IMG/VR virus record: IMGVR_UViG_3300042869_001157
Coordinates: 2,598 to 66,597 of that record
DNA length: 64,000 nucleotides
Reading direction: 5' to 3' (one strand)
From: a virus
A program made the position numbers and the translations under genes. Below are positions 4,861 to 46,555 of the stretch, one piece after another. Numbering within the stretch: position 1 is the stretch's first letter; each line of letters starts with the position of its first letter. The notes under the pieces were generated by a model. That model did no database searches. It had not been told where the DNA came from and saw only the letters and a list, made by a program, of their open reading frames with translations.

Positions 4861-7800
4861 ATGTCCAATTTCTCCACGTCAGACATACTTTTCAAAGCAC
4901 TCGATGGTCAAATCAATATTGACTCAGCGCAAGGAATTGTTGAATGTTTCGTAGCCGCCATCGGCAACAAGGACTCGGTAGGTGATGTCATCGTCAGCGG
5001 TGCGTTTACGGAAAGTCTCAAGCGTCGTAAGCCACGCGTAGTTTGGGGACACAACTGGAACGATCCCATCGGTAAGGTTCTAGAAATCTACGAAGTACCA
5101 GCGAACGACCCACGCATCCCCATGAAGATGAAGATGGCTGGCGTTGGTGGACTGTACTCTCGCGTTCAGTTCAACCTTGCAACCGAAAAGGGACGTGAAG
5201 CCTTCGCCAGTGTGGCGTTCTTTGGACAAGAACAAGAATGGTCAATTGGCTACAAGACACTCCAAGCAACATTTGACCCCACAATGCAAGCAAACGTTCT
5301 ACGTGAAGTTGAACTATATGAAGTCAGCCCTGTTCTTCACGGCGCAAACCAACTAACCGCAACACTTTCCGTCAAGAGCGATGATGGTGGAGAAAAGTGT
5401 GGACCTGAAGGAATGCACGGCGGGATGCACGGTGGAATGAACGCCAGCCGACCAGGATCAACCACTATCGATATCCCTCGCTTCAACCTTATTCCGGCAA
5501 AGCCACGATCATTCTCGACAGAGAACGAACGTACCGACATTTTTGCTCAAGGCGAATCTGGACAGTTGGGCGACGAGGCCCGCACAGCACTTGAAATGGA
5601 ATTATCATCACGTTCAGCAAGCCCACTCAGAGTAGTCAATGCAACCGAAAATAGTGTTGTATTTGATCGCACAATGCCAGATGGAACACGCATGACCTAT
5701 CGCATTGGGTACCATCGCGAGTCACAAAGCGGCAGATACATGTTCGGCAAGCCAGAGAAGATGGCTTCACAACAGATAGTTCCATCACAAATGCCTTCAA
5801 TGCCAATGTCGGTCAAGCCAGGATACGTAACTCGGTCCTACAGTGATGCGCAGCAGCCAATCGCAATGATGAAATCATTCGATGAGCAACTTGATCAGGC
5901 CGTTGAAATTCTCTCCAATGCCGGAGAAGATGAAACAATCAAAGAAAGCGAATTGCAAAAAATTCAAGACGCCATCGACTATCTACGCAATCTCGCCGAT
6001 GGACAGCAGAAAAAAACTGCTTTAGAATATTCGGTATGGTGTAAGCCACAATATGCATACAAAGTCAAGTCACTACTAGACCCCGTACTCAATTACCATC
6101 GCCTAGAAGCACACGTTGACGACTACGGTGTTCATGTAACTAGCGGGCTCAATGAAGATTCGCTACAGGCACTCAGATCAGCCCATAAAAATATTGCTTC
6201 CTACCTTGATGGTGGCGGTGGTTCAAAAAAAGGTGATGGGGCGCCTAACACCAAAGCCGCCCCCAAGACCAGAATAAAAGCCCTTAGTGGCAAAATTGGT
6301 CCTAAAATTGGTGGCGGTTTGCGTGCTGCTCCTGCAGGCATGGCATTCGTCGACATCACTGGCGTTACTGACGCCGACTCTGACGGCATTGTTTTTGAAG
6401 GTAAACCAGGCTTAGAACGACCAATTATTCCTCGCTTTATCGTACCTAAGAACCTTGCCAGAAAACTTTCAAGCATTGTCGAAGGCGATGCCGAATCAAT
6501 TGAGAAGCAGCGTCGTGCAGGTAATGGCAATGTTTCTTTTGATGAAAAGAAACTTCGCGGGATTATTGATGACATCGGTGGTGACCCCAATCTCTTGCAG
6601 AATATTTCTTCTGACGGCATGCGCTCGCGTGGCGAAATGCGACCCATTGGTTCTGACTTACCATTTGATCTACAAACTGGCAAACCACGCAAACGATTTG
6701 ATGAAACTGATGAGGAATTTGCAAAAAGAACTCGCCCACTTGCGTTTGATTTGAGGCAGACAAAACCTAGCAAGGCAAAGTATTCTATTACGAATTTCTC
6801 CAGTCGAAGCGGCATGCGCTCACGACGTGGTGAATCAAAAGAACGAAGAAAGGCTATTTCGGAAATCGATGACGCAATTTCATTTACCGAGTCATTGAAA
6901 CGTTCCGACGATGGTCCTGCTTTCTTTTTTTCTGATGGCATTGAGGCAGCAAGCGATTTTACCCGTGCTCTTGAATACAATAATCTGTTCAAGTATCTTG
7001 ATTATGAGTCAGATTCTGATTCCGATTCAGGATATCGCGTTAGTCTTGATTTGGAATCAATGGATGATTCTGAACTAAATGACCTTATTGATATTCTTAA
7101 TGATGGTCAAGAACCCGAAGACTATCTTGAAAAAATTCCAACTGATGATTCTCGTGGCATGCGTTCACGCTCGGGTGATCCGGAAATCGATTATCAACTT
7201 GACGAACAAGATGACCGTCAGTTCCGTGACAATCGTCTTGATGCACCGCGCAAGAAGCCCCAGAAGTCGATGCGAGAACTTCGTGAAGAGAATCGCCTGA
7301 AGCGTCAGCGTGAGGCAGAGAATGACCCCGAGTACATTCAGTATATGCTTGACGAGCAAGCAGACATGCAGCGCGATATGGAACGCGAAGAACGTGGCAT
7401 GCGTTCACGACGTGGTTCAACTTATAGAGAACGTGGTCCAAGTTATGAAGAGCAATTCGAGGACCTAGATCAAGATTCTGGTCATTTCAATAATTTACTT
7501 GAACGTACTGTCGAAACAATGATCGAAGATGACGAACTTGACCCGAAGGACGTTGATTGGTCAAACATTCTTGACAATGAAAAAGTAATGAGTCGTGCCG
7601 AAGAAATGTGGAATTCTGACGTTGAAGATCATTGGGCTGATGTTGGCGAACGACAGCGCGATGACCGTGGCATGCGTTCACGACGTGGCTATGTTGGTCC
7701 TCCTGATTCGTGGTATGAGCCAGATGACGATCCTTTGGAGCCACTAGAAGAACTAGTCGGTGAAGAGTGGAACAGGGGTGACTCGGATAGATATTACGAG

Positions 7801-10800
7801 ACTGCTCGCGATTGGACTAGAGAAAATGTAGACCAATACAAGGACATGACTGATGATGAATGGGATTCCCTTTTGGATGACGTCAATGCATCAGACGACC
7901 CTATTGCAGCAATGCATAAATTGTTTAAAGAATACGATAATTCCGACGCCTTCGATGATGATATTCGTCGTTTTGCCGAAAGTGATTTAAATAGTTTTGA
8001 TGAAGATTACGATGACCGTGGTTTCCGTTCACGTCTTGGCGACGCGGTACGTAAGCAAGGTCGCGAAATTGGCAAAGACCTCAAGAGAGAGGCTAAGAAA
8101 TTTGCTAGAGAAAAGGGTCGCGAACTCCTTGATGATGCTGTAGACAATATTTTTGATCGCAACAGAAGAGATCGCGGGATGCGTTCGCGTAGATTCAGGG
8201 AAGATAGCAAGCCAGACAAAAAATTAAAACCAGCGTACGGAAGAAGAGGGCCAGTTCAAGCACTTCAAAATATGAGTGACGAGGAACTTGTTAAACTTCT
8301 TCAATCGTATGGCGAAACGGCATGGCGTCCATGGGACAGGAATCCACAATCTTCTTCCCTCCTTTTGAGAGATCGCCCATCATTGAGTTCTTTGGTTCAA
8401 GAACTTGATTCACGTGGTTACGACGTATATCAAAGCGAGGGACGTGAGCCTGAATATTTCGGTGATTATTCCGCCGGAGATAAGAGCGTTTATGCACGCA
8501 AGCGCGGACAAGAGCCATCACCATTGGAAAGAATGCTCAATGGCGAAATGTCATGGGGAGTGGAGGAAGAAACAAAGCCGCAAGATGTCATTGACTCCCA
8601 ACTAGAAGATCGTCGTCGTAGCGAAAGCAAAACATGGAAAGCAACAGTCCCTGACGACTACAAGCCATCAGATGGTGCCCTAGAAACTCTGACACCTGCT
8701 GAAAGAAGACTTCTAGAGACTTTTAAGCCAAAATCTAAAGCACAACGCAAACAAGAAATGCTTGATTCTTTCCGCAATCAAGCAAAACGTGATGTCGACA
8801 GCAATAAACCTTACGATACTTGGGATTGGTACCCCACTTTCGAAGAGTGGGATCAGGAATACAAAAAGAAATTGCGCCAATACAGAAAAGCGCAAAGAAA
8901 AGCCTACGCCCACGATCTAGAAAAAGGCAATGTCAAGCCAGTAGAAGAGCGTGCTGTTCAGCAAACTGGCTGGTCAGTAGAAAATCTTGACTGGGATAAC
9001 TTTAAACCAAAGCCTCTTCGCTTTGGACCTTATGGCGGTCCTCGCGACGTACCGGAACTACTTCGTGGTTTCCGTTCAAAAATTACTGATGGTTTAAGAA
9101 ATGAACGCGATAACAGCGTTAAATCTACGACAACCATAGAACAACGAGCATTCGATATTCTTGCCCAAATGTCGCAGCGTAGCGGCCAGAAATTTGGTTT
9201 GAGCGATAAAGAACTGCAAGACATTTTTGATGGTGACCAAAAGATTAATCCCGAATTGATGAAAATTGTTCGTTCTGAACTAAAGCGTCAAGGGTTCACT
9301 AAAGATGATGTTGCAGATGTATTGAGTGGTCGCTATGCGGGGTATGCCCGAAATAAAATATCCGGAGCACCAGACGATGCTGATCGTGTATTTGAAGGAG
9401 AAATGGAATCTATTTCCAATCGTGCATTCCAGGAATCGATGGACATACTCAGCGATGGGTTGACCATTGAAGAATTCCAAGATTTTGTTTCTTCTGGCAG
9501 AATTCCTCAAGGCAAAGAAAGCATCTTGAGACGCGCCAATGAAGTGTATGACAACATTGTTCAAGATAGTGACAAGCAGCGCGCAATGGGCCTACGTTCT
9601 CGCACAGGACGCAATATTGATGCAGAAATCGACACCAATATCAAGAAGCAACGCGATCTTGAAAAAGAACTCGATGATGAAAAAATTGATTTAGCAGAAT
9701 TCCGTCGCCGTCAAGCACCATTACGCCAAGAGTTTTCTGACCTACGTAAAGAGCAAGGCGCTCAATCAGCAACTAGAAAAGCGCCAGAGTTAGATGCCAC
9801 TGGTCGTCCACGTCGTGAAATGATTGAACGTGACGAAAAAGGAAAAGTCAAATTTGATTCAGAAAAATTCTTAGCAGAACAGAATAGTAAGCGTCGTTCT
9901 ACGATGTCGGAACTTGGTTTCACTGAAGAAGAGATAAATGCTTTGATGGGTGCATCTTCTTCTGGCATGCGTTCACGAGGCAGATCGAACGAAAGTTTCA
10001 AGAATGCTCGCGCTCTGTACTCATCTAAAAACAAAGAAAAAATTGCCGACAGATTGACAGAACTTACGCAACGTCGAAATGAACTTAATGCCAAATCAAA
10101 AGAATTATTGGATCAATATTATGCCAATGGGCGAGATTTTAATGATGAAGAAAATGACATTTATGATGAAATTGAAAATGAATTAGACGACGTCAATGAC
10201 GAAATTAGAGGAATTTCTGATTGGGCAAAATATGCGACAAGTGAAGACACTCAAAGATGGGTTGGTCGAACTGGTATTAGAAAAACCCGTATGGCTTATA
10301 GAAAAATGCTTGACGACGGTGAAATTAGTCAAGGAAAATACGACAGACTCCTTGAGGACCTTATCGACCCTACATTTTTTGATGATGAACATTGGGACAG
10401 CGTAGGCGCCATCCCGTTCATATCATATCTTCGCGATGTTTTTGAAGATGATGATGACATCTTCGTAGATGTAGATAACCAATTATTGACATCTGAAAAA
10501 ATTGATGATTTGTCATCTGATTTTGCTGCAGAAAAAGTTGCAGAAGGCCTTGCTAACTTAAACAACAGAGGAATGCGTTCGCGTTCCGGAAAAAAGAATA
10601 ATTCCGAAAAACGCAAAATGGTCACGAAGTTGACTCCAGATCAAGTTCGTATTATGCAAGAACAAAAACTTCGTTCAAAGAAAATTCCTGGCAAGAAAAA
10701 AGATGGCCCGTCCAAGAATGAGTGGGGTTTCCGTTCACGCGAAGACTTTGGCAATTCTGCTGGCGCAGCAATCAACTATTTGAGCGAAATTTTCTCTAAA

Positions 10801-13800
10801 GACAACAATGATTTGTCTTCTAACGAAAAATATTTGCGTCGCCACCTCTTGGATAACGGAATCAAAATTGATTTCTATCGCGGAGGTCGCGAAGGCTCTA
10901 TCGGTTCAGATATCTCCTTGCGAGATAACGATAGAGCAGGCATGGACGACAAACTAGATGCTTTATTGAACACAATATCTAAAGATAAAAAAGCATCAGA
11001 TATCTTGTCTGATAACGGATTCTTAATGGATGATCGTATTTGGGAAACTATGCCCTCATACAAGAATCGCCCAAACCGAAAAGGACCCAAATTAGGTGAC
11101 AGAGAACGTGGTGTTCAGGCGCGAGCAAACATTACAGATTTAGCACCTGGTGATGTTCTCCCCGAAAATTGGGATGATGAAACTAGTGCTGTTGGTGGGC
11201 CAATGGTTCGTATTGCCGATATTCGTAGTGATGGTCAAGAAGATGGCTACGTCACGATGGTGTTAGAGAACATGTCTGATGGTACTACTGAAACACGCAC
11301 ATTTGGTACGAATGACACATTCCCGAACGTAAGCAGACCGTCTGGTTCTCGTGGTGGACGTCAGCAAGGAATGCGATCCAGAGGTGGCGGGCAATACTGG
11401 ACCGACGGCGCACACAGGATTTGGATTTCCGATGATGAAGAACAAAATAGTGACGTCGGAGTCGATGCCATGCGAGATGGTTTCCGACCAGAGGGTGGCT
11501 CGGGTAGCGGTAGAGACTACTACCCATCTCGTCGCCGAAGATACCCCACGAGTACCCCCAAGCAAACAGCACCAAAACCAGATGATGGAGATCAATTAAT
11601 AAGCGATGCTTCGTCTATTACTGGAAATGACCTTGCTGCGTCCATTGTTCAACAATATAAACAACGTGGCCGACTTACGGACAAACAATGGAATGCACTA
11701 CGTGGCATAGTTTCTAAAAACAAAAAACCATCAGCCGGTCCATCTGCAAAAGAAGGAGTAGATAAGGCTGAAGATATTGCGCCTTCACTTTCCAATGAAG
11801 ATAAGAAGGCAATCATTGAGGCTGCTCGTGGTTTAAGTGGTGATTTTGCGAAAAGTGTTGTTTCTCAATATAATTCTCGTGGCCGTTTAAGTGACAAGCA
11901 GTGGGCTGCACTAGATAAGGCTACCCGCAAAATACGTGGTACCTCTACTAGTGCTGGCATGCGTTCACGGGCAAATACTGGATCAATTAACTGGGATGAA
12001 CCCGACGAAAACTGGGGAGATGGTGCGGGCGGGGATGTAGAAACATGGACGTTGCCAGATGGTGGCTATTATCAAATCTCCCGTTGGGAAGGCGGCGGGA
12101 ATAACCCTGGCGGTTCAGTCGCTACAGTATATGACGCCAACAATAAACAAGTTGCACGAAGTGAAGAATTTGGTTGGTATTCAGACGACGCAAAGAAGTT
12201 CTTGCAGGATTATCACAAAGAAAATACACCTACAGAAGGTGGCATGCGTTCACGTCGTTCTTACGATGACGAAAGTGGTTCGCGTGGGGTCCGCGAAGGA
12301 GTCGCAGAATCTGAACATTTTGAAGGCTCCATGTGGATTGATCAACTCAAGGGCGACAATGTTGATGCCGATGTTATTCCATTAGCGGATATTTATGGTG
12401 ACGACAGGCCTGGATATGGCGTGGTCGGCGTTTATAGAACTGACGATGGATTCGGTGGGATTGAGTATTTCTATGGCGGAGACGATGAAGAGTTCGATTC
12501 TGTTGAAGACGCCATGGACTTCTTGCAAAATGTCGAAGACCAGGGTAATGAGGACATTCTGTATGGTGATCCGGAATTCCGTAGTCTTGACCGTGTTCGT
12601 GCTGCAGGAAAGCCTGGCAGACGTCCCCTAGAAGGATTGCGTTCACGTTCTGGTGGAACGTCAGCAAATGTAGAAGCAGACCGAAGAGATGCTGCCGACA
12701 ATTCCGTATCCAACCCAATATCGCCTAATCGCCTTAATGAACTTTCGGGTAGCGATGATGTTGAAACTAGAATAAATGTTGCAAACAATGATGGAGCATT
12801 CTTAGAAACAGTTAATAGATTGCTTGAAGATGACGATCTTGACGTTCGTAAGGCTGCAGATGAGAATATTCAACGACGCTTTGGCGCTATAGCAAACCAG
12901 CCTGGTTCGGATCGACGTAAGCCTGCCTCGCGTCAAAGACGAGAAGCCGCGAAAAACTATTTGGCTCAGCATGAAGAGCGAATGCAGAAAGCCGGCATGC
13001 GTTCCCGCACTATGCGCGAACAAGACCCAAGAGCATACGATGACGTTTATGAATTGATCGATCAAGGTTTGTCTGATCAGGAAATTTATGATTCGCTTGC
13101 TTCTTCGCGGATATCGGGCGCGCGAGAAATAACATTATCTAAAATTGGTCAAATCCGTTCTGGTGGCAGGGAATTAACTCAGGACTCAAATAAGCGCGGA
13201 TTTGTAAGAAAAAAGAATACGCGTAAAATCAATGACCGATTTGATGGACAGCAAGTGGCTCGTTTGAGTGCTTCGCGTGGTGGCCGTTACGGTGAGCGTG
13301 CGGATATCGAAGAAGGCCTCAGTGATGTGCAAGAAATTGCTGACGGCATGCGAAGCAAAGCCGGAACAGGGTTGGGCGAATCACGCGAAATCTATCCTTC
13401 ACGCAGAATGGCCGAAAGTAGTGCTGTTGACTTCGTTCGTTACGATGCCGCTAAAGAAGAGTTGGTCGTCCAATATAAGGGCGGCGGCGCTTACGTATTT
13501 GGTGGTATTTCTGCTGATGACGCAGACAGCATTGAAGAAGCAGAGAGTCTTGGTAAAGCACTCAATGATGTGAAGCGCAATGCGACATATTCCGTTAAGC
13601 CGAATGGTGATGTTAATGGTGTTGAGTCAACGACTGCTGATTTCTTGGAACGTGATTTGCGTCGTGTCCCACTAAGCGAAGACAACAGGTCCGTATACGG
13701 TAACGCTATTCGGTTACTTCGTGATGGGGTTGATGAAGATAGCGACTTTGCACAGGTTCAGTCTCAGGTTACAAACATAAGCAACCTTGCAAATGAGATG

Positions 13801-15837: not shown

Positions 15838-15890
15838 CATTAATTTACATACACATATGCTACTTTGTTGTACACTTAAAATAGATTAAA

Positions 15891-17786: not shown

Positions 17787-17798
17787 CTACAACAGGGA

Positions 17799-28750: not shown

Positions 28751-29093
28751 TATGATTAGCCAAGAAGAGTGGAATCAAAAAATTAAACAACTCTGGGGGA
28801 CGACTTTAGTCTCAGTGAATAATTCAGATTTATCTATTGACGAACACATTAGTAGGGCTAGGAAACTCCAAACAGGAATCGACCCCCACGAAGCCAGACG
28901 CAAAAACAAAGCACAAGAAATCGCCGCAATCATGTCACTCCCAGGAAAAAAGAACTGGGTACGAGAAGACGATAAGCCATATTTTGAACTAATCACAAGC
29001 GGACTAATTAATTATCCTCCCGAAGATAGGCTAGACTTATTAGAGTTAACGAAATCTGATGATTTCCTCAAAAAATATATATCGGAGTTATGA
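28737..29093 (+). CDS. Hypothetical protein
   Basis: 118-aa ORF overlapping both neighbours in the operon. Confidence 0.65.
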   Translation: MRSNNMISQEEWNQKIKQLWGTTLVSVNNSDLSIDEHISRARKLQTGIDPHEARRKNKAQEIAAIMSLPGKKNWVREDDKPYFELITSGLINYPPEDRLDLLELTKSDDFLKKYISEL

Positions 29094-37700: not shown

Positions 37701-39308
37701 CTTCTCAACGAGTTCAAGCAACGATTCCCAAGATGGTGGGATAGAGCAAGTAAGGAAGCAGACAAAAAAGGTTGGGACAAAGATTTGATGAAGGGAGGCA
37801 ACGCTGGATGGCTTGACGAATTGCACAGATTCGTTACTAATCTTGCTGATGATCCGAACTATCCAGAGAAGAGTAGAGCCGACGCGGAGAAGCAGTTCAA
37901 TGACCTGCAGGCCCTTTATAACATGAGAATCAACCGAGGCTCACATGACCTTCTAGAACACTTGAATCCTACTTCGCGACGCTACCTATTTGACGATGCT
38001 CGACGCGATGACAGTAAGAAAACTGGGATTTCTGCTAGCAGTAAAGAAATGAAAACACCTTCTACTGCACCACGCCCATTCGGTGATCCGATTGATGTCG
38101 GAACACCAATTCGTGAACAGGTTGGACAGAATCAAAAGAAGCCAATGAAAGAACGTCTAGACGCATACTACAAGAGAATGTCAGACAAGATTCTTTATTC
38201 TGATCCCGCACGTCAGGCTCGCCGCGAAATGCGTAAAGCACGACGTCAAGGCATTAACGCTGGAGGATTCACCGAAAGAGAAGCCAACCCAGTAGATGAC
38301 GCAAAACGTAAGATTCGTCGCCGCAAGCGCCTCAAGCAAATGCGCAAAAATCGCACACGCGACGTCAGCACCATCTCTGACTCATCAACAAGTAACCGTA
38401 TAGATGGACGCCTTGCTCACACCGATGGCCAAGGTTCATTAGTATTCGGAGATAAGTTGGCTTCAACTCTTTCAACGATGATGCAAAATTATCGTACAGA
38501 AGCAAAACTGAAGCAGACCAAGGGCGGCGTTAATAAGAATAGAGCCCTTGCTGTTCTTTGGGATGGTGCCGGATATAACGGCACACCAAACATTGTTACA
38601 CCCGATGAATTCAAAGCACTTCATGCAGCCGGCTGGGTCCCTGTAGTAAGAGGACATGGCAACGGTTCAAATGGAGTTCGTTATGCGAACGACTGGATTG
38701 ACGATCCCGTACGTTTCATCACAGGACAAGGCGGAGAAGCGCAAGGCGAAGGTGAATACTGGGCAAGGGCTACGCAAGGCGGTGGTGGCTGGTTCAGTTG
38801 GATGGATGGTTCATTGCCTGCAGGCACTGTAGGTCTCCTCCCTCCATCAACACGTCGTGTTAATAAGGCAGAGTTGCGTAAAATTCAAGCAGAGCATGCT
38901 CCTTTGGCGAAAGCAATTAAGGCTTTTGACGCAGGACTGCCGACTGGAGAACGCGAAAAAATGAATGCTGAAGAGTATGTGGATCAATTGCGTGATCATT
39001 TACGTGGCTCGCTTGGACCAATTTATGAATCAACAATGTCCACCAAGATGGGTCAGATGACATCAAAGATTTTGGAATCACTAAGTGGTTCTTCGGATTC
39101 CAAGAAACAAGAACTTCTTGATTCTTTAGAATTCCTTGAACTTATTAGTAAGAAGAGAACTTCTAACTCATATGCTCCGCTATTAGGCTACGATACAATT
39201 ATGGCTGATAGCGGCGTAGAATTGATTCATAACCGCACGGCAATCACTATCGTTGGTGATACATTCAAGAGAGATGACGCAGTCAATTTGGCTAAGTCGA
39301 AAGCATAA
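31755..39308 (+). CDS. Giant multidomain protein (2517 aa): pentapeptide repeats, WGR domain, two KTSC domains, a duplicated module, a C-terminal ART-like domain and about 16-18 GMRS linkers
   Basis: A(D/N)LxxA repeats at about 34590-35240. KVYIAEF..TVSWGRAD..KEKRGY at about 36615-36775. SSALRQASYNAEKQELVVTY and SSAIEALTWDDENEDLIVTY at about 36920 and 37230. Confidence 0.82.
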   Translation: MNRYALLKDSINDSIFGVIVDSNGLSKFYGVSAKGLEWSKWANGINVKSENNGLPIGVVVGGYSALRNTNPNYIQALVDTVSLRNPSINKKQGISDSLIKNSSSVVPGVRDAELRAFDIDKRNEAIAFKARAFRTDSKVSSLLTQVRAERLGFVSAEGVFSSRNPIHTPEVKQAEIIDSYGRSLQRAIGLSLIRKKSAKMLAVVRKDQALAQSFGIEFKAAGIGPKIGSRLGGGLRSAPAGMSFVDVTGVTDADTDGIVFEGKPGLERPIIPRFMVPKDLARKLSGIVDGDAEEIEKQRRAGNTSVQFDEGKLRNIVASVGGDASLLQAVTNDRGVPATTTSGRERVSAAARNVAGNIASRRREIASRRGMRSGQRADLGDATPLSPGELNKLSEQEIVDRLIEDRYAGLNLDEAAKKYGLKGGRVEARRLEAREMQRRNNQGMRSRTTPPGIVREDYFNFEEYDFNDQVVDAMGNWMGRPDQQEMRERSGGLEALWEDFKKSDEYRDMEADMLDDNLKFSGATSDNPVLVSTAGNDRGQAEIKYDGEMFTVDVSLWNNEQDELFDTPEAKKEFDNLSEAEEYASSLFSDGMRSRNLKMSGAPKEIQDSYSEDDIKKIENSLRTGGRQELRLSWDSENNGWMLDSFDADGEVFIEADAPLVRLTDAISDVIADRYDSEAYGGEPPYLSNMNELLPDEEDRDDSWIKEYPVSGMRSVTGISEMNTSGAPKEYADALEKWRGYFGETPTRRNRRTGKVTESERNHPALPSVYWNKENESWVLSFDGEPTELSIYSDDPREAAKAVSDILETTADRYRWENEDNFGDISDLADIGEMYSDGDGKDRTVKITAGMRSSSGNINSFDDYLNHPAFDRDFAEWRKDNPGKNKRDFIDDPDGAEEYFSLGMEEAGASLNPESYFGTSGMRSRSGGMRSRVGGGKWDGKRPEPQDIKAGADLSGADLSYQILRRIDLSDANLTGANLVGTKINGANLKGANLTDANLSRTELQASNLVGAKLTGTDFTSANLSNVNLTNADLSSANLYSTMLDGANLTNANLQGANLRGAKMQATNLNNANLIKANLTDANLTDAKLIAADLIYADLRKAKMIRADLRFANLAGANLTRANLGTANLKKANLEEANLTDANVTDANLTDAKLDNAVLTNVRMPRDWIISNLGTAGMRSRGYRNDDDSDYDNEDYGVDRGDWDDDLDPDERRRIMDGMRRRSGGMRSRYSDDSADGYAEADAPDLDREDYENYIDTPTFEEHLGEWLVDNPGKTREDFINDPDGAELAWDKFFENDDPKKYYGISDAEWAAAFRSRSGNINSFDDYLNHPAFDRDFAEWRKDNPGKNKRDFIDDPDGAEEYFSLGMEEAGASLNPESYFGTSGMRSRSGGMRSSTKPLVEAELLTGDDLTREQEEMLFEIVFNNGGISDARLNDGDYETGDLMEAAGINLYNIQVNDELAQRIEDAIVERDKNYNRYMGKSYNRDYARTIIERWQDSVNDDPDEMFDALSLYEGDLVAAMENHYDEYVYSQLDTFENSRDGGMRSRSGGMRSSTQLRGRDFKRDANIRANHLGKDAETWPRTARLQDVIYPERPYYGAQDVSRSDKIILSAPSENGGPEGKVYIAEFDDETGTLTVSWGRADSRNLQTKVYSGKTEEDFHKLLRDKEKRGYRLEGGHIPAKSSSYDKDVDWKADHEKQAKMGMRSSTGTEQRPYTNVPVTGSSALRQASYNAEKQELVVTYANGKTYTYKNFSNDDLDNSLSGPDYVLTGTAVNQIKKNHDFREGGTHTFDPQYQDVQGPGGEFSVEKLSRLGRGEKTQIPVSGSSAIEALTWDDENEDLIVTYAGGRTYTYKDVDSYWIEDLERETGTGRIINNIKKEGYRVVDGGEHGDMPSEGLTAERAEFGMRSRMAPSSGRIRAAEMEISARPQGMASRRSEGLKDPRFAVPGRDRVDPSDGQLWNRLSDEEKTTVANRAVNRERMLLNEFKQRFPRWWDRASKEADKKGWDKDLMKGGNAGWLDELHRFVTNLADDPNYPEKSRADAEKQFNDLQALYNMRINRGSHDLLEHLNPTSRRYLFDDARRDDSKKTGISASSKEMKTPSTAPRPFGDPIDVGTPIREQVGQNQKKPMKERLDAYYKRMSDKILYSDPARQARREMRKARRQGINAGGFTEREANPVDDAKRKIRRRKRLKQMRKNRTRDVSTISDSSTSNRIDGRLAHTDGQGSLVFGDKLASTLSTMMQNYRTEAKLKQTKGGVNKNRALAVLWDGAGYNGTPNIVTPDEFKALHAAGWVPVVRGHGNGSNGVRYANDWIDDPVRFITGQGGEAQGEGEYWARATQGGGGWFSWMDGSLPAGTVGLLPPSTRRVNKAELRKIQAEHAPLAKAIKAFDAGLPTGEREKMNAEEYVDQLRDHLRGSLGPIYESTMSTKMGQMTSKILESLSGSSDSKKQELLDSLEFLELISKKRTSNSYAPLLGYDTIMADSGVELIHNRTAITIVGDTFKRDDAVNLAKSKA
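34316..35935 (+). repeat. Near-identical 231-bp direct duplication (34316-34546 and 35705-35935) of one linker-bounded module
   Basis: Both copies encode SGNINSFDDYLNHPAFDRDFAEWRKDNPGKNKRDFIDDPDGAEEYFSLGMEEAGASLNPESYFGTSGMRSRSGGMRS with only a few synonymous differences. Confidence 0.92.
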
Positions 39309-39321
39309 GGTGAAGGGCATC

Positions 39322-39678: not shown

Positions 39679-39709
39679 TAGTTAATTAGAATGTGAAGGA
39701 TTACTCTAC

Positions 39710-42700
39710 ATGAAATCTACATCGTCCAGCACATATAAGAAGATGCGGGCGTTGCGGGAAGCCCAAAAATTAGGTTGTTCTGGCGCTCATCAAAATAGCG
39801 ATGGCCGCTGGATGCCTTGTTCTTCGCATGACAAATTAACTCAAGTCGCCCCAGTGATTGCTTCTGCCAGTAGGGATGCCATATCTCAAAATCGTGGAAA
39901 AAGAACCCTAAAGGGCTCTAACAAGATTAAGAAACAATGGGAGAACCTCGGTCAAAGTGGCATCCTCAATTTAGGCAACGTCGCTGGCGGCGGGTTAGTG
40001 GCTGGTAGTCCTACAGGGAATTTTGGTGGAGATGCTGCTGGCATGAGCGCCAAAGCATTACCCAATATTTTTGGTCCACGCGATCAAGACGTTGATGTTT
40101 TCACTGACATTGAATCTGCCAGACAGCGTTCGCGTCAATTAGGTTGCGTTGGTGTTAGTCGACGCATCTCCAAAACTGGAGCGACAGTCTGGATGCCCTG
40201 CACAAACATGTCTGATTATTCGTCGCTTGCTGGAACAACCAGCCTGGGCAGACGTCATCAAAAAGAACGTTTAGAGCGAGTCATTAATGCCGCCATTGAA
40301 AAGAAACTAAAAAAGAACAATAAACGTAATAAGAAATCTCTTGCTGGTGATATCAATTTCAAAGCACTTGGCGGTGGCTTGGGTGGAAACCTGAACCGTC
40401 CTGCATTCTTTGATCCCAACGCATGGGACGGAGACAACGACGGTCGCGTACAAGACAACACGCCATTTGAACGCCCATCCATTCCTGGAGTCAACGGACT
40501 GCCCGTGAGTGGGATGAGAAGTGTCAGTAAACCGAGACTGAACATAGATGAAGCGCAACGGGAAAGCATAGAAAGCGGCGACACCGCATTTGATGAACTG
40601 GTACTTTCTAAAAAAGCAAAAAAGTATGCCCGAAAATATTTGAAATTATTTGAATCAACTTTTGAACCAATTGATGAAAAATATCGCTATATGGACGATG
40701 ACGAAATTATCGATCTAATCAGAAGTAGCATGCCCGCATCTGCCGAAGAACTAAAACAATTAGTCCGCACAAATCCATTCACAAAAAACAAAGCAAGAAC
40801 TGCATGGAGCCGACTCATGCAGGCAAATCCAGACTTTGAAGCAACAGCCAAAATGCGTGATGCTTTCATTAAGCAAATCAAAGATAACCCTGGTGTTTTG
40901 GAAATGGTTCGTCGTTATGGCGTTCCACCAATTGTGGCCACAGAGTATGTTCCAGCATTGGCCTGGTATGGCAATAACACTGAAGGGTGGGGTGAAAGCG
41001 GTGGCGGCTGGGCCCATCTTGGTGTCATAGCAATGAACTATACGTGGGTTGAATTCGATCACGGGATGTCAATCGAAGATGCTGTACGCCACGAAATGGG
41101 TCACGCGTGGGAAGCAATGGCTGCAGTTCAAAATGATAAAGCAAGAGCACATTACGCTTTACAATTTTCTGAACTTTATGAAGGACTTATTCAAATGTCC
41201 AGGAATAAGGAAAAAGCATCCTCCTATCACGACGCCAAATGGGGTAATGAATCAGAGCATGCCTCAGCAGCAAAAATATCTGAGTATGCAACGACAGCAA
41301 GAATTGAATGGTTAGCAGAAACAATTGCTGCCCTAACTAGTTCCGACCCAAGTAAAAGAGCAAAAGTTGATGCTACTGCTAAAGAGAATATTAGCGAATC
41401 ATTCGGCATTGCACCTTGGGAAGTTGAACAAATATTCACTCCCATAGATGGTTCTGGAGGTTTTGCTAGCAGAATTTCTTCTTTGCCAAACAAACGTGAT
41501 TTAGATAACCCAAGTTTGAGTGATTTTCTTAAAAAAAGATATGAAATAGATGAAGATTCATTATCAGAATCTATGAAATGGGTTGAAAAAAATCCTGAGT
41601 ATTTATCGGATATGTCGCTATCCGTCCAGTTATCTTCCTCCCCAGGGGTTCAGAGTCAATACAGGCGATCAGTCGTTGAAGGATTCAGGTCATATAACTC
41701 ACAGGGACGCCAAGGTTCTGGTGGTAGAGAAATGGGCCAAAAAATACTCGGGCGTGTCAACCCAGAAGAATCCAATCAAGACGAACCAACATTATATTTC
41801 GTTGGTGGCACTACCGGTTCCGGAAAATCGACATTAGTAGCCAGAGGGGTAATGGACGGTGTGCCAAATCAAAGTTCTGCCGCGCATATTGATCCCGACG
41901 AAATAAAAACAGGGTTAGTTGGCTGGAATGGCGGGCAGGGGGCCAGTGCAGTGCATCAAGCCTCACGGGTTGCCACCGACAAAATCATGGATGATGCCGC
42001 ATTACAGCGAATGCATATGGTTGTCCAGGGTACGGGCAAGCGTCGCGAACATCTAACCAATATGCGCAGACGAGGATATAAGACTTCAGGTCATTTTGTG
42101 TGGATTCCTGATGATCTCGCAGATCAAAGAGTTGCGGAAAGGAAACGTAACGGCGGAGCGAATATACCGACATATTTTGGTTCGCAAATTGCGAGAGAAC
42201 TTAGAAGTGGGCCTGATTCTGTTTCTCGTCAGATAACTGACGGTCTTTATGATGAATTTTTTCTTTACGATAACAGTGGAGATGTCCCAAAACTTGTAGC
42301 CAAACGTTTAACGGATGGTTCGTTTGAAATATTGAATAATCAGGTGTTTAATTCTTTCTTTAGTCCAACTGGGGCAAAGTTTGTTCGTGATTATTGGGAG
42401 AGTAACTCTCCATCAAATAAAAAGAATTTAACCCGTACCGGAATGTCTAGCAGAAGAGGTCTTTCTTCGATGGGTGACAAAGTTGGGATGCGATCACGTC
42501 GTCTCGGCGAATGGGAAGATGTAACTGATTACGACAAATTTGGTGAATCAAGTATCGCTTTAAAAAATACTTATGGTGAAGATAGTCTGCGTGATCTCTC
42601 AGAAATTTTGGAAAGCGAACAATCATCTATTAAGAAAGCAATTGCGCATTGGGAAAAAACTGGTGAATGGCTTGGTGAAGATTTCAATGTTTCTATGCCA

Positions 42701-45700
42701 AGAACACCAAATGCGAAATCTGGAATAACAAAAAATCATACTGCCGAAAGTCTGTTAAAAAATCAGACAAAAGAACAAATGAAAAATAACTTTGATTTGT
42801 ATTTAAATAACATTGATGCTCAACTAAAGCATGTTCGTGGGCGACTAAAGAATATTGAAGAAATAAATAATGGCGCTGAACCATTGCACATCAATTTTGC
42901 TACTTTGCGTGACATGCCGGATTTTGATGCTTTAGTAAAACGTGGGAAAGAAATTAATAACTTGAGATATGGAGACGAAAATCCACTTATTTCAGATGAT
43001 TATATTTATTTAACACATACTGGTCATCCAGAACTTGAAAATGGCATTCTTGACCCCAACTTTAGCCTTGACGCTGGTGGTGGAGGCATCCCTGGTCGTG
43101 GATCAATGGATACAAAACGTTTAAATAAAGTCGGCAGGGACATGATTGTCCGAAAGTACGAAACGGCAGAGAAAGACCTGACCGCATGGCAGGAAGTTGT
43201 TGATCATTTTAGTAAAACTGGTGAATGGCGTGGAGCAAAATTGGCTAAATCACTTCAATTGGGAGCACAAAAACCCACTGGAAGAATTTTTAATGACTAC
43301 AGTGCCGATGATTTAGACAATAAAATTTCTTCAGAGTACCTTCTTGATCAAGCATCCAACAGTATTGACTTCAACAAAGAAGTTCTTCAAAGATTAAGCA
43401 AGCAGTACGGTCCTGCTAAACGTAATGAAGAACATTTAAGTTACGAATTTGCTGGCAGTGGACCAAATTTTGGTTATAGCCGACGAGACACCCCCAGCAG
43501 TAAGACTTATCTTGTAAGAGTTCCTCGCGATGAGGCAACTACAGAGGCTGGACCGTCCACAATGGGGGAATTCCAAGTTTTCGGTCAACTCAAACCTGTT
43601 GCTTCATTTGAATTCCCAAGCAATATCAATGATTGGGACACCAACGCTGCCGCTACTGCTTATTTTGAAAAAATAGCGTTAAAAAATGAAGGAATTGCCA
43701 CTTCTGGTATGCGTTCACGAAATCAACTTGGACAATCTATAGAAAAAGATGAGATTTTCGGAGGTTCAGTATTCTCTGGATTCACTCCACGAAATCCGCT
43801 TACAACAAGGGACCTAAACAACAATAATTTGCGTATGGCAGAAATGATTTCGATACATGTCGACCCTCGTATTGATTTCAAAAACAGAAACATGGATTAT
43901 GCAAACCTTACAAGAGCACATTTGGGTGGAATTGACTTAACAGAGTCATCGTTGTTTAGTTCCAACTTAAGTAATCTCAATGGTTCTGGAGTCATATTTG
44001 GCAAAACAAATTCCAAACCTGCTGATTTACGTTACTCAATATTGAGTGCAGCACAAATGCCAAATTCCCAATTTGAGGGAGTTGATTTATCTGGCGCACT
44101 AATGATTTCAACAAATTTCAACAAAGCGAATTTAAAAAATACCAATTTTGAAAATGCCGTCTTATGGAATTCAGATTTTCGTGGTGCGGATTTGCGTGGA
44201 TCGAATATTACCGTAGAGCAGTTAATGAATTCAAAATTTGATTCAACAACCAAATTGCCTGAAGGTATGTCGTTGCCAATTGCGGAGAATAATGGGACCA
44301 ATACGCAAAAACCATCAACTCACAAGATTCCTCTTGGTGTTATTGGCAACGATGATGCCGATTTGCTTCGTAAAAATCTTGTTGATGGTGTTTTGAAAAT
44401 TGATGGGCCGCTAGATGCCAAGAAACTTGAATTATTACGTAGAAATTTGAGTAAATCAGAAATTTCCAATACTGATTTACGACGATCAACCTTTAATGAA
44501 AGCACTTTTTTTAATTCAACAATGGCAAATGTGGATTTAACTGGAAGTTCTTTGTTTAAATCAAACTTCAATAAGAGTACATTGAACAATATAAAATTTA
44601 ATCATGCAAATTTGGTTGGTGCTAATTTTAGAAATGCAATAATTGGTCGAAATGTCTCATTCAAGGGCGCAAATCTTACTGACGCAAATTTTGCTGATGC
44701 TAAAATACAAGGCAAGATAGACTTGTCTGGTGCCGATCTTACCGGAGCGATATTAGATGGTGTGGATTTGCGTGATGCCATAGTTGATAGTCAGACAAAA
44801 CTTGATGGCGCTATTGGTCTTGACAGGAATAAAACACCTAAAATGGTTGTCCGTGGTTTGAGATCACGTAATTATTCTGATATGTCGACAGAAGATTTAA
44901 TAAATACTCCAGGCAATGTTCTTTTGTCTGATGCCAATGATGCATTGCTAGAAATTGGCAAGATGAGTAATGCCAAGCGTCCAGATGCAAACATTGATCC
45001 CCTAGTATCTAAAATACAAATTATTTATGGACATCTTAATGATGTTCCTGGAATCAATGAAGATTTCTCTATCAAGAATTCTGAGTTAGATAATCAAATA
45101 TCTGCAGTAAATAACATTATTGATCAGTTTGGAACATTCAAATTCGGTGATGGACAACCCATAGATGTTAGAAAATTCATTGAAAATAAAGATAAATCAG
45201 GATATGTCAAGGCAATTAAGTCTTCTGGACAAAATGTTCCACTCAGTATTCCAATTAATGAGTGGAATAAAATAAATTCTCAATTAATTGCACGCGATAT
45301 GTTGAATGATCGCAAAGAATTGTTATCTCCAACAACAAAGATAGTTAAAAGTAAACTGAATAGTTCTGTTGCTACAGAAGCGATGCTTTCTGACTATGGA
45401 ATTATGAGCAATATTAATAATCTTCCAGATTTTTCAATCGCTGAACCGATTCGTAAGAAGCGACCAACGCCTTCAATAGCCAGTGGTGAACTTGGGCCAA
45501 ATGAAATGTTGATTTATAACTCCAATAACCGTCCAACAATTTCCAAAATACCTAAATCACAAAGAATTGAACAATCGATCAATCGTGTAAACGGTATGGC
45601 GAGCAGATCGAAGCCAACTTCTGAAACAGGGAGAGCAAATAGGTCAGAAGAAATCTATAAAACTGTTTCTGATGCACTCATTGCAGCCCTAGAGGAATCT

Positions 45701-46555
45701 GTTGATGGGAATTGGGAACGTCCTTGGAATTTGGGGACGACAATTCCAAGAAACGCTTCCACTGGCAGACAATATGGCGGGTTTAATGTCATCCTTTTTT
45801 CTCTTGTCCAACAGAATCGTAAATACGAGTATCCTGTATGGGCCACATACAAGCAATGGGAAGCACTTGGCGCCCAAGTTCAAAGAGGCGAAAGGGGTTT
45901 GACCGGAATTAAGTGGGTTTCTCGCGAACGCGACGTCAAACTCCCAGATGGCACCCCGACCAAGGATACGTTCTTGACCCCTAGTGCCTTCACGGTTTTT
46001 AATATTGCCCAAGTTACTGGGGCGAATCCAGATGATTTCCTCCCTCCAAGGCTTTCTCCAGAAGAAAGAATTCCTGCTCTAGAAGAAATCTTTGGACAAA
46101 TTCTTCCCAATATTAAAACAATCAATGGAGATTCTGCATACTATAGTCCGGCTAGTGACTACATCAATATGCCCCCGTTCTCAGCCTTTAATGACCCAAG
46201 CGCATACTATGCAACACTTTCTCACGAATTGATTCACTGGACAGGAAATAAAAAAAGAGCCGACCGCCCAAATATGAACCGATTTGGGACACCAGAATAT
46301 GCTTTTGAAGAATTAGTAGCAGAAATAGGTTCTGCTTATCTAATGGCACTCCTTGGGATGGAAGCAACACCTCAAAAACAACACGCCCAATATTTGAAAT
46401 CATGGATCGAAATATTAAAAGATGACCCTACCGCAATTCAACGTGCCGCAAGCCAAGCACAAAAAGCAGTAGATTATCTTATTGCTCAATCACCAAAACT
46501 ACAAGAATTATCGACGCCTATTAACATTTCACAAAATTTAGTGGAAGAAGCCTGA
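39710..46555 (+). CDS. Giant multidomain protein (2281 aa): two GCxG...WMPC motifs, zincin, zeta-toxin-like P-loop kinase, pentapeptide repeats and a C-terminal ArdC-like antirestriction domain
   Basis: RHEMGH...SEYA...EWLAE at about 41087-41320. LYFVGGTTGSGKST...IDPDEIK at about 41790. Pentapeptide repeats at about 43890-44810. WERPW...PRNASTGRQYGGFN...WATYKQW...AYYSP..DYINMP...HELIHWTG...YAFEELVAEIGSA at about 45710-46340 is the classic ArdC pattern. Confidence 0.85.
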   Translation: MKSTSSSTYKKMRALREAQKLGCSGAHQNSDGRWMPCSSHDKLTQVAPVIASASRDAISQNRGKRTLKGSNKIKKQWENLGQSGILNLGNVAGGGLVAGSPTGNFGGDAAGMSAKALPNIFGPRDQDVDVFTDIESARQRSRQLGCVGVSRRISKTGATVWMPCTNMSDYSSLAGTTSLGRRHQKERLERVINAAIEKKLKKNNKRNKKSLAGDINFKALGGGLGGNLNRPAFFDPNAWDGDNDGRVQDNTPFERPSIPGVNGLPVSGMRSVSKPRLNIDEAQRESIESGDTAFDELVLSKKAKKYARKYLKLFESTFEPIDEKYRYMDDDEIIDLIRSSMPASAEELKQLVRTNPFTKNKARTAWSRLMQANPDFEATAKMRDAFIKQIKDNPGVLEMVRRYGVPPIVATEYVPALAWYGNNTEGWGESGGGWAHLGVIAMNYTWVEFDHGMSIEDAVRHEMGHAWEAMAAVQNDKARAHYALQFSELYEGLIQMSRNKEKASSYHDAKWGNESEHASAAKISEYATTARIEWLAETIAALTSSDPSKRAKVDATAKENISESFGIAPWEVEQIFTPIDGSGGFASRISSLPNKRDLDNPSLSDFLKKRYEIDEDSLSESMKWVEKNPEYLSDMSLSVQLSSSPGVQSQYRRSVVEGFRSYNSQGRQGSGGREMGQKILGRVNPEESNQDEPTLYFVGGTTGSGKSTLVARGVMDGVPNQSSAAHIDPDEIKTGLVGWNGGQGASAVHQASRVATDKIMDDAALQRMHMVVQGTGKRREHLTNMRRRGYKTSGHFVWIPDDLADQRVAERKRNGGANIPTYFGSQIARELRSGPDSVSRQITDGLYDEFFLYDNSGDVPKLVAKRLTDGSFEILNNQVFNSFFSPTGAKFVRDYWESNSPSNKKNLTRTGMSSRRGLSSMGDKVGMRSRRLGEWEDVTDYDKFGESSIALKNTYGEDSLRDLSEILESEQSSIKKAIAHWEKTGEWLGEDFNVSMPRTPNAKSGITKNHTAESLLKNQTKEQMKNNFDLYLNNIDAQLKHVRGRLKNIEEINNGAEPLHINFATLRDMPDFDALVKRGKEINNLRYGDENPLISDDYIYLTHTGHPELENGILDPNFSLDAGGGGIPGRGSMDTKRLNKVGRDMIVRKYETAEKDLTAWQEVVDHFSKTGEWRGAKLAKSLQLGAQKPTGRIFNDYSADDLDNKISSEYLLDQASNSIDFNKEVLQRLSKQYGPAKRNEEHLSYEFAGSGPNFGYSRRDTPSSKTYLVRVPRDEATTEAGPSTMGEFQVFGQLKPVASFEFPSNINDWDTNAAATAYFEKIALKNEGIATSGMRSRNQLGQSIEKDEIFGGSVFSGFTPRNPLTTRDLNNNNLRMAEMISIHVDPRIDFKNRNMDYANLTRAHLGGIDLTESSLFSSNLSNLNGSGVIFGKTNSKPADLRYSILSAAQMPNSQFEGVDLSGALMISTNFNKANLKNTNFENAVLWNSDFRGADLRGSNITVEQLMNSKFDSTTKLPEGMSLPIAENNGTNTQKPSTHKIPLGVIGNDDADLLRKNLVDGVLKIDGPLDAKKLELLRRNLSKSEISNTDLRRSTFNESTFFNSTMANVDLTGSSLFKSNFNKSTLNNIKFNHANLVGANFRNAIIGRNVSFKGANLTDANFADAKIQGKIDLSGADLTGAILDGVDLRDAIVDSQTKLDGAIGLDRNKTPKMVVRGLRSRNYSDMSTEDLINTPGNVLLSDANDALLEIGKMSNAKRPDANIDPLVSKIQIIYGHLNDVPGINEDFSIKNSELDNQISAVNNIIDQFGTFKFGDGQPIDVRKFIENKDKSGYVKAIKSSGQNVPLSIPINEWNKINSQLIARDMLNDRKELLSPTTKIVKSKLNSSVATEAMLSDYGIMSNINNLPDFSIAEPIRKKRPTPSIASGELGPNEMLIYNSNNRPTISKIPKSQRIEQSINRVNGMASRSKPTSETGRANRSEEIYKTVSDALIAALEESVDGNWERPWNLGTTIPRNASTGRQYGGFNVILFSLVQQNRKYEYPVWATYKQWEALGAQVQRGERGLTGIKWVSRERDVKLPDGTPTKDTFLTPSAFTVFNIAQVTGANPDDFLPPRLSPEERIPALEEIFGQILPNIKTINGDSAYYSPASDYINMPPFSAFNDPSAYYATLSHELIHWTGNKKRADRPNMNRFGTPEYAFEELVAEIGSAYLMALLGMEATPQKQHAQYLKSWIEILKDDPTAIQRAASQAQKAVDYLIAQSPKLQELSTPINISQNLVEEA

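Follow-up and report, generated by a model that had tools for sequence, protein, structure and literature searches.

The head operon

The present analysis concerns the head genes of a virus represented in IMG/VR by the record IMGVR_UViG_3300042869_001157. The window, that is, the whole 64-kb stretch of DNA that was analysed, corresponds to almost the whole 66.6-kb virus contig, in which a terminal repeat is absent. Its head operon is a 42-kb block of eight plus-strand open reading frames (ORFs) located between the portal and capsid genes: four giants of 3658, 2723, 2517 and 2281 amino acids (aa) and four smaller ORFs fill this interval. A short consensus peptide recurs in several of these head-module proteins (50 sites in the four giants, plus a variant in the smaller protein p926). 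Judging from the sequence, this GMRS joint peptide is most likely a cutting signal.

A sequence-only reading of the window had placed four giant ORFs between the portal and capsid genes. They are real, and they are kept as long ORFs, in the same order, in independent contigs. The terminase, portal and capsid genes flank the giants, which corresponds to a portal-terminase phage context. The following genes can be differentiated in this region:

3..2423, minus strand: large terminase subunit (phrog_979, E 1.4e-99), divergent from the head operon; its 3' end is open at the window edge
2702..4741, plus strand: portal protein, 679 aa (PF04860, E 4.7e-45), with 0 motifs
4861..15837, plus strand: giant 1, 3658 aa; protease, two small domains, a shared tag-like module and then ~22 modules, with KTSC at aa 2852-2907
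15891..17786, plus strand: p631, 631 aa; syntenic in relatives, no family match, no G-phi-R-S motif
17799..25970, plus strand: giant 2, 2723 aa; HExxH near aa 559 and DEDD exonuclease (RNase_T) at aa 2129-2319
25970..28750, plus strand: p926, 926 aa; degenerate DxDxDG module at ~aa 150-195, followed by GMRVR at aa 197 and HExxH at aa 508
29090..31758, plus strand: p214 and p674 (214 and 674 aa); syntenic, no informative match, no motif
31755..39308, plus strand: giant 3, 2517 aa; shared module at aa 222-338, pentapeptide repeats, KTSC at aa 1826-1873 and a sub-threshold WGR match
39710..46555, plus strand: giant 4, 2281 aa; DUF3721, degenerate shared module at ~aa 235-270 followed by GMRSV, HExxH at aa 461, zeta-toxin-like kinase at aa 688-840, pentapeptide repeats at aa 1468-1664, ArdC-N at aa 1981-2097 and MPTase-PolyVal at aa 2124-2249
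46893..48200, plus strand: major capsid protein, 435 aa, HK97 fold family (PF05065, E 4.3e-47), with an N-terminal extension of ~100 aa

In general terms, unrelated domains are combined in each chain: S78 and KTSC in giant 1, RNase_T in giant 2, and pentapeptide repeats and KTSC in giant 3. Giant 4 matches PF18818 (MPTase, E 7.9e-43) and PF08401 (ArdC-N, E 6.4e-25), while giants 1-3 match neither of them. Regarding the smaller ORFs, PHROGs and NCBIfam gave no match for p631, p926 and p674, and p214 has only a weak match to phrog_6439, of unknown function (E 0.0007).

A recurrent joint motif

Three patterns were used to count the motif: (i) a strict pattern, G[MFLV]RS[RKS]; (ii) a pattern with a free fifth residue, G[MFLVI]RS (G-phi-R-S); and (iii) a loose pattern, G[MFLVIY][RSAK]S. 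The ORF set comprised 25 ORFs, namely the four giants and 21 others. The sequence-only reading had counted ~55 copies of the strict pattern, distributed as 23, 6-7, 16-18 and 6-8 over giants 1-4. These counts were too high: the exact pattern gives 42 copies (22/4/13/3), and 55 copies (23/6/17/9) are reached by the loose pattern only, which also has one match each in p631, the capsid protein and p902. The G-phi-R-S pattern has 50 copies (23/6/16/5); the six copies in giant 2 are all in its C-terminal half, and the 16 in giant 3 include three double sites (GMRSRSGGMRS).

The same reading had reported a GMRVR variant in 25970-28750 and no motif in the portal, the capsid protein or the right-hand genes. 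The variant is indeed there, at aa 197, and the strict pattern has no copy in any of the 21 other ORFs tested. The motif is also clearly enriched when compared with chance: composition shuffles of the giants (n=2000) give on average 0.22 strict copies, with a maximum of 3, and 1.3 loose copies, with a maximum of 7. In the non-giant six-frame ORFs of the whole 66.6-kb contig (35,520 aa), there are 3 loose matches.

Of the 50 G-phi-R-S sites, 38 have Met at position 2 and 36 have Arg at position 5, and the lineage consensus of the joint peptide can be written as x-G-M-R-S-R-[SRT]-G. Two other roles for the motif were considered and rejected: (i) internal translation starts at the motif ATG, since F, L or V replaces M at 12 of the 50 sites and other clades have motifs without Met; and (ii) a charge-only role of an Arg-rich linker in DNA binding, since the variants GFSSS, GFAST and KLSSG contain no Arg.

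Position of the motif between modules

The motif avoids recognisable domains. None of the 50 G-phi-R-S motifs is located within the 10 Pfam best-stretch intervals, which cover 1,263 of 11,179 aa and would be expected to contain ~5.6 of them. Folding models, which cover 7 of the 50 sites, point in the same direction. In the AlphaFold model of giant 1 aa 2715-3658 (18-row alignment, mean predicted local distance difference test, pLDDT, of 64), all six motifs are found in segments with pLDDT <50, which account for 243 of the 944 residues; in the weaker model of giant 1 aa 1-600 (mean pLDDT 50), the motif at aa 586 is in a low segment as well. The seven modelled sites are, hence, all in low-confidence linkers, in agreement with the domain-boundary position that the sequence-only reading had assigned to the motif. 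Furthermore, the proportion of order-promoting residues is 0.18 in the motif flanks versus 0.27 in the background.

Every recognisable domain is found alone within one inter-motif piece:

Giant 3, piece aa 931-1179: pentapeptide module, exactly between sites 928 and 1177
Giant 2, piece aa 2084-2381: DEDD exonuclease
Giant 4, piece aa 661-928: zeta-like kinase
Giant 1, piece aa 2832-3013: KTSC
Giant 4, beyond its last site: ArdC-N and MPTase

The linkers had been said to flank KTSC, WGR, DEDDh, zeta-like, pentapeptide and ArdC domains. This stands for the Pfam matches to KTSC, RNase_T (DEDD), zeta, pentapeptide and ArdC-N/MPTase, but not for WGR, whose match is sub-threshold (E 0.005, 17.3 bits versus a cut-off of 22). 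Taken together, the in silico evidence supports that the motif marks inter-domain linkers.

As regards the content of the other pieces, many of them are 50-120 aa long, strongly acidic and without a family match. For instance, giant 1 aa 589-1108 consists of six consecutive pieces of 52-117 aa, with a net charge of -25 to +6, and hydrophobic residues make up 20-27% of them. Ten single inter-motif pieces were scanned against Pfam at E <= 1, and sub-threshold noise was the only outcome apart from the above-mentioned WGR match. When the model of giant 1 aa 2715-3658 was compared with the PDB using Foldseek, only KTSC structures were found (7x8c and 4rgi; E 0.07-0.18, TMt 0.70-0.77), with no match for the C-terminal module or the other modules.

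Replacement of the motif across relatives

The head operon is syntenic in G001 (capsid protein 93% identical), G002 (85%) and the complete, 158.7-kb G003 (76%). The joint peptide differs among them. G001 has 51 G-phi-R-S sites. G002 has 35 S-T-R-S sites distributed over all four giants (12/5/9/9; shuffle mean 0.4) and 2 G-phi-R-S sites, and G003 has 6 K-[LF]-S-S-G sites (shuffle mean 0.02); the window giants contain 0 STRS and 0 KLSSG. A further clade uses G-[FLM]-[SA]-S-[SR]-T (8 sites in L100), and another one S-I-S-G-R-M-S.

These replacements take place at aligned positions. The C-terminal module of giant 1 (~aa 3512-3658) is kept across clades and, ~12 aa ahead of it, the 18 sequences of alignment A1 have GMRSR, STRST, GFSSS, GLRSS, GFAST, GLAST or SFAST, depending on the clade. 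Likewise, the window has GMRS...GLRS on either side of the giant 4 pentapeptide module, and its orthologue in G002 has STRS...GTRS. The joint peptide is positionally homologous yet changes in concert within each lineage and, in consequence, this pattern fits sites that are read by one shared factor. The comparison thus supports, in silico, that the motif may behave like a site for one trans-acting factor, most simply a protease.

The sequence-only reading had pointed to related phages as a place to look for a conserved linker between variable modules. The modules do vary between motif joints; the linker, instead, is replaced clade by clade. Among 65 distinct giants of >=1500 aa from relatives, 35 have at least 4 copies of one motif class, versus 6 of 1300 shuffled giants. 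The recurrent joint motif is widespread in the family, not universal.

Module gain and loss at the motif

Between the giants of the window and those of G001, identity is 77% overall, 86% in the four motif residues and 66% in the flanks of 12 aa on each side. Three insertions or deletions of at least 100 aa separate them (117, 182 and 230 aa); each is joined within the motif (GM|RSR) at one end or more, and two of them at both. The blocks of 117 and 230 aa are excised from ...G-M|R-S-R to ...G-[FM]|R-S-R, leaving one intact motif, and the block of 182 aa is inserted directly after G-M-R-S. After one double site, the window and G001 carry unrelated modules. Similarly, of 155 clusters of BLAST high-scoring segment pair ends from matches to more distant relatives, 31 are no more than 10 aa from a motif, compared with a random mean of 13.9 and a maximum of 24 (n=1000). 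In silico, these data support that the motif is the junction of module gain and loss.

The module content of more distant relatives differs further. In G002, giant 1 contains a NUDIX domain, giant 2 lacks RNase_T and giant 4 lacks ArdC/MPTase. In the first giant of G003, the protease is joined to ArdC-N, MPTase and two UvrD-like helicases.

An extra module of ~270 aa (ANAWLANWD ... GG..LFRA) was also observed in alignment A1 (columns ~810-1080), between two joint motifs, in 12 of the 18 relatives (L099, L100, L103, L105, L106, L109, L110, L115, L122, L128, L129 and L130). At that position, the window has a double motif only. This extra module could be kinase-like.

The protease domain and a slippery site

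Two features at the front of giant 1 deserve separate consideration:

4930..5364, plus strand: HK97-type prohead serine protease domain, giant 1 aa 24-168 (PF04586, 43 bits versus a cut-off of 21)
6225..6231, plus strand: slippery heptamer A_AAA_AAA, codons S455-K456-K457, in phase and 5' of the shared module

The PF04586 match bears out the proposal that the largest array is fused to the prohead protease. The domain also matches the TIGR01543 equivalog with an E value of 8.4e-14, but its 51.9 bits are below the cut-off of 59. H64 and S128, which we take to be the catalytic pair by assignment from HK97 gp4, hardly vary in 31 distinct relatives and do not vary at all in alignment A2 (32 rows). 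In the weak AlphaFold model of giant 1 aa 1-600, the pLDDT of the protease domain is 50-69, and giant 1 aa 1-585 had 0 sequence matches in the PDB at E <= 1.

As far as the slippery site is concerned, in the window and three close relatives the zero frame corresponds to the fusion (>3200 codons where the contig allows), while the -1 frame reaches a stop 3 codons further on. The same heptamer is found at this place in five STRS-clade relatives (in L153, at ~10056-10062 of the minus strand), with the outcomes exchanged: the zero frame stops, and the -1 frame, open for up to 3326 codons, corresponds to the fusion. In the G003 clade, an A10 run replaces the heptamer. In the window clade, a -1 slip would yield a short protease of ~459 aa beside the long fusion.

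The shared module and the HExxH modules

A module of ~100 aa, GGGLR[AS]AP..F[VI]D[IV]TG..DxDxDG-IVFEG..ERPIIPRF, whose DxDxDG is calcium-loop-like, is shared by several of the head-module proteins. Moreover, three HExxH motifs are found outside Pfam matches:

6280..6630, plus strand: shared module of giant 1, bounded by G-L-R-A and the first GMRSR
32418..32768, plus strand: shared module of giant 3 (aa 222-338), 76% identical to the giant 1 copy over aa 235-333
~40410-40520, plus strand: degenerate shared module of giant 4, followed by a motif
~26420-26560, plus strand: degenerate shared module of p926, followed by a motif
~19470: HExxH of giant 2 (aa 559)
~27490: HExxH of p926 (aa 508)
~41090: HExxH of giant 4 (aa 461)

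Among relatives, 22 distinct copies of the shared module with 29 invariant columns (alignment A4) were found. The module is kept in G001, G002 and G003 and, across clades, varies far less than the sequence around it. It may be a candidate tag for head targeting or loading. A predicted complex between the capsid protein (A3) and the shared module (A4) had a score of 0.00, which is no answer, neither for nor against. In the ESM Atlas, the best scores for the shared module were <=0.87, to unrelated families.

The HExxH motifs of giant 2, p926 and giant 4 have syntenic counterparts in both G001 and G002, and one occurs in the second giant of G003. These modules may be unrecognised zincin-like peptidases.

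Proposed mechanism and alternative explanations

The explanation favoured here, with slightly more belief than doubt, is that the giants would be head-packaged polyproteins of the polyvalent type, whose linkers would be cut by the HK97-type protease of giant 1 and whose cargo would be delivered with the DNA. Each giant would be a chain of independently folding or disordered modules, connected by floppy linkers that each carry a recognition peptide. The protease-cargo fusion would be made and, in addition, the -1 slip at A_AAA_AAA would probably add the short protease. The loading tag may be the shared DxDxDG/ERPIIPRF module, which giants 1, 3 and 4 and p926 all carry towards their front end. 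The protease would then enter the procapsid and cut the linkers there, giving rise to ~50 pieces with presumably different fates: (i) recognisable anti-defence or takeover modules that would leave with the DNA (ArdC-N/zincin, zeta-like kinase, DEDD exonuclease, two pentapeptide-repeat modules, as possible DNA mimics, and KTSC); and (ii) many short highly charged peptides that might constitute internal filler or scaffold.

The sequence-only reading had already regarded the linker as a protease site and the pieces as dozens of effectors. The position of the linkers, their conservation, their clade-wise replacement and the module junctions argue for the protease site. The capsid and portal, being without the motif, offer no link to a known head-protease substrate, and the HExxH modules are rival cutters. 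As for the effectors, enzymes are recognised in some pieces, but many short acidic pieces have no family match, and the latter may be filler or scaffold rather than effectors.

A number of points weigh against the favoured explanation. G-phi-R-S was not found in the capsid protein, the portal or the other head ORFs outside the giants. The capsid protein has a loose GYSS only, at aa 76, and its likely maturation junction (...SFK|SIGDEF, by alignment) is unlike the motif; in 60 distinct relatives, this junction region is variable, with no clade motif other than a possible L-S-S in the K-L-S-S-G clade. Since capsid and portal are without the motif, the site is common to no known head-protease substrate. 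Between clades with different motifs (GMRS, STRS, GFSS), the protease is 77-80% identical over its first 200 aa and, hence, a tight co-evolution of enzyme and site is not evident. No RNA structure stands out downstream of the slippery heptamer (80 nt; z -0.96 in the window and 0.01 in L153). None of five motif classes reaches at least 4 copies in 30 of the 65 relatives' giants, and these motif-poor giants include some of 3215 aa that adjoin the capsid gene. Most modules lack a family match even at E <= 1 and, in consequence, the term "effector" is unproven for them. The conserved HExxH modules could do the cutting instead of the prohead protease. In the window clade, the codons of the motif are skewed (CGT at 38 and TCA at 31 of the 50 sites), and the 11-mer ATGCGTTCACG occurs 17 times on the plus strand, always in frame, and 0 times on the minus strand; these two facts also fit a recent spread by recombination, and not selection alone. 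Finally, we infer that the linkers are cut, which protease cuts them, that the giants are packaged and ejected, and what the tag does.

If the linkers are cut, the prohead protease of giant 1 is the likeliest cutter. It is unlikely that the cutters are instead zincin-like metallopeptidases of the cargo itself (the MPTase-PolyVal of giant 4 and the HExxH modules of giant 2, p926 and giant 4), acting in the head or after injection. Such peptidases would be at hand: giant 4 has the MPTase-PolyVal match (E 7.9e-43), the HExxH motifs are syntenic in the window, G001 and G002, with one in G003, and MPTase autoproteolysis is proposed in the main text of Iyer et al. (2017; PMC5512222). Nevertheless, the four giants of G002 have no Pfam MPTase match yet carry their 35 STRS sites, the other HExxH modules match no Pfam peptidase family (E <= 0.01) and, in the same main text, the MPTase-bearing N4 virion RNA polymerase and ArdC/TraC1 travel uncut (PMC5512222). 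A head protease that is fused to the largest array would be a more economical cutter. The N4 polymerase, packaged unprocessed according to that source (PMC5512222), is also an argument for a motif that is not cut at all, and that would be a flexible joint and recombination junction in giants that work whole, packaged or not. This would account for the module insertions and deletions joined exactly in the motif, for the 11-nt core that could provide micro-homology for recombination at 17 window-clade sites and for the 30 of 65 relatives' giants without a recurrent motif. Still, it is decidedly unlikely: a joint need not keep four residues (86%) while its flanks diverge (66%), nor change in concert between clades at 35-50 sites of four genes. 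Besides, the codons of the STRS clade are diverse and, therefore, its joints offer no DNA-level homology for recombination.

The two remaining alternatives concern the acidic pieces and the repeat as such. Giant 1, or at least its acidic array (aa 589-1108) and similar stretches, might be a sacrificial core or scaffold that is cut to small peptides, and not a source of injected effectors, a rather unlikely option that overlaps with the favoured explanation. The six consecutive pieces of the array, with the charge and hydrophobic content given above and no family match, would suit such a role, and the array varies even between 77%-identical relatives. In T4, the products of gp22, gp67 and gp68 are small peptides that leave or pad the head. 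The capsid protein, on the other hand, has its own N-terminal extension of ~100 aa, which is the part that serves as scaffold in HK97-type phages, and giants 2-4 carry recognisable enzymes. Finally, the repeat might be a DNA or mRNA signal with the peptide as a mere by-product. The strand bias of ATGCGTTCACG and the over-use of CGT and TCA at the motif would be compatible with a signal of this kind, which is, however, hardly credible: within the giants, every copy shares one reading frame, and CGT and TCA are likewise favoured by the capsid gene (67% and 45%) and at other Arg-Ser dipeptides. The STRS clade retains the peptide at its 35 sites with serine codons of both the TCN and AGY families and with six different arginine codons, which indicates that selection acts on the peptide. 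We read the codon excess beyond the preference of the capsid gene as a probable result of recombination at the joints and recent spread, rather than as a nucleic-acid signal.

The favoured explanation can be extended to a general, evolvable cargo-loading system, a tentative idea about which doubt prevails over belief. Such a system would combine a tag, a lineage-specific cleavage code, a protease carrier and a frameshift toggle with injected cargo, following a Gag/Gag-Pol-like logic, and it would occupy about a quarter of the genome. Any module placed behind the tag and flanked by the code of 4-5 residues would be loaded, cut free and injected. The code would drift in concert at dozens of sites (GMRS, STRS, GF[SA]S, KLSSG), and the frameshift toggle would set the ratio of free protease to protease-cargo fusion.

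Neighbouring genes, related phages and host

Some observations on the genes next to the head operon are worth mentioning. The terminase ORF (807 aa) has an N-terminal stretch (aa 40-119), before the terminase ATPase, that weakly resembles a DnaC-like helicase-loader PHROG (E 3.4e-11). The C-terminal half of the portal has a long Pro/Gly/Met-rich low-complexity stretch with PGMPPG repeats (aa ~405-500; window ~3900-4200), and the portals of L158 and L159 have GAPP/PPGA repeats at the same end. On the 3' side of the capsid gene, two plus-strand ORFs (48489-51197 and 51001-52590) overlap by ~197 nt in different frames; their counterparts in G001 (1004 and 505 aa) show no overlap. Downstream of the head operon, a leftward block includes an ORF of 588 aa (57206-58972, minus strand) that matches a beta-1,4-glycosyltransferase PHROG (E 2e-96).

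In IMG/VR, the capsid protein has 389 relatives, on contigs of up to ~160 kb, and the front of giant 1 has 62. A cultured member was not found; the nearest cultured capsids (45-49% identity) belong to Brevibacterium and Gordonia myophages, which have extra genes between portal and protease, but no giants. Among these genes there is an RNA ligase in both Gordonia phage ScarletRaider (L001 4897-6989) and Brevibacterium phage Cantare (L156 6701-7405); in the former, a gene annotated as VIP2-like ADP-ribosyltransferase is found in the same interval. The genes between portal and protease in these phages may be single-gene counterparts of the head cargo. An assignment of the host from the labels of metagenome-assembled genomes was discarded, as five contigs disagree (Bacteroidia, Phycisphaerae, Gammaproteobacteria twice, and Nitriliruptoraceae).

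Relation to known systems and significance

Giant multidomain proteins of phages and conjugative elements, which in portal-terminase phages are found among structural genes, have been described as polyvalent proteins (Iyer et al., 2017; PMC5512222). According to the main text of that paper, (i) their modules include ArdC-N, MPTase, zeta-like kinase, helicase and NUDIX domains; (ii) they are predicted to be packaged, their domains being freed by embedded peptidases, and an analogy with viral polyproteins is drawn; and (iii) rare fusions to assemblin-like head peptidases are "always at the C termini" (PMC5512222). The claim that the architecture of the window had not been described was, therefore, too strong, as both polyvalent proteins and their polyprotein-like processing had already been proposed there (PMC5512222). 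The window giants share with the polyvalent proteins of that account the multidomain chains among virion genes and, in giant 4 only, the ArdC-N/MPTase hub domains. They depart from it in their ~50 joints with one motif, clade-specific at aligned places, in the four-protein head operon of ~42 kb and in the slippery site that would dose the fusion; no linker motif was found in the consulted passages of that paper (PMC5512222). Relative to that text, the new elements are the joint motif (~50 sites), its lineage-wise replacement, the module swapping at the motif, the N-terminal S78 fusion with its putative frameshift toggle and the four-gene operon (PMC5512222). Searches of open-access papers and preprints, without their supplements, turned up neither a linker motif nor an N-terminal fusion of S78 to cargo.

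In HK97, the protease gp4 is a small free protein, and the capsid protein gp5 is cut at K|S. The window resembles HK97 in the protease family (PF04586/TIGR01543), in the location of the protease gene between portal and capsid and in the delta-like extension of the capsid protein. But while gp4 is a free protein, the protease of the window heads a chain of 3658 aa. The likely capsid junction of the window is also HK97-like (basic residue|Ser), but without a G-phi-x-S context. Fusions dosed by frameshifting are known from retroviral Gag/Gag-Pol, dnaX tau/gamma and the phage tail chaperones G/GT. The likeness lies in an X_XXY_YYZ heptamer at the joint between the short and long products, and lineages differ in which product would need the slip. 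Unlike in those systems, the partners here are a capsid protease and cargo, and no stimulatory structure was found.

T4-type head proteases belong to S77 and cut after L/I-x-E or S/A/G-x-E. The accessible text on T4 gp21 (with substrates IPI-III, Alt and gp22), phiKZ gp175 and SPN3US gp245 describes one head protease that acts in the procapsid on many internal substrates through a short consensus; some products are injected, others are discarded, and an N-terminal targeting segment is removed (PMC10052503, PMC7411985). Functionally, the window giants would resemble these substrates. As far as these sources go, those substrates are separate proteins with one or few sites, while a single window giant is a chain that can contain as many as 23; the protease site is common to the capsid protein in T4, but not in the window. 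Giant head-module ORFs also occur in cultured actinophages. One of them encodes gp48 of Streptomyces phage Gilgamesh (L157 2660-16534), a hypothetical protein of 4624 aa located between portal-MuF and capsid; the capsid proteins of this phage and of the window are 34% identical. Unlike the window giants, gp48 has 2 G-phi-R-S, no 4-mer above 5 copies and no protease fusion.

The design based on modules plus linkers, perhaps with an address tag, could inform how foreign proteins are brought into phage capsids. Even an uncut motif would mark, in a striking way, where modules are shuffled in giant phage genes. If, on the contrary, the motif is a true cleavage code, it would provide a testable case for the 2017 prediction of polyprotein-like processing of polyvalent proteins, and a recognition peptide that changes in concert at 35-50 sites would bear on the co-evolution of proteases and their sites. 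Furthermore, such a code would be a readable rule by which thousands of residues of phage "dark matter" could be split into candidate injected proteins, most of them without a known family.

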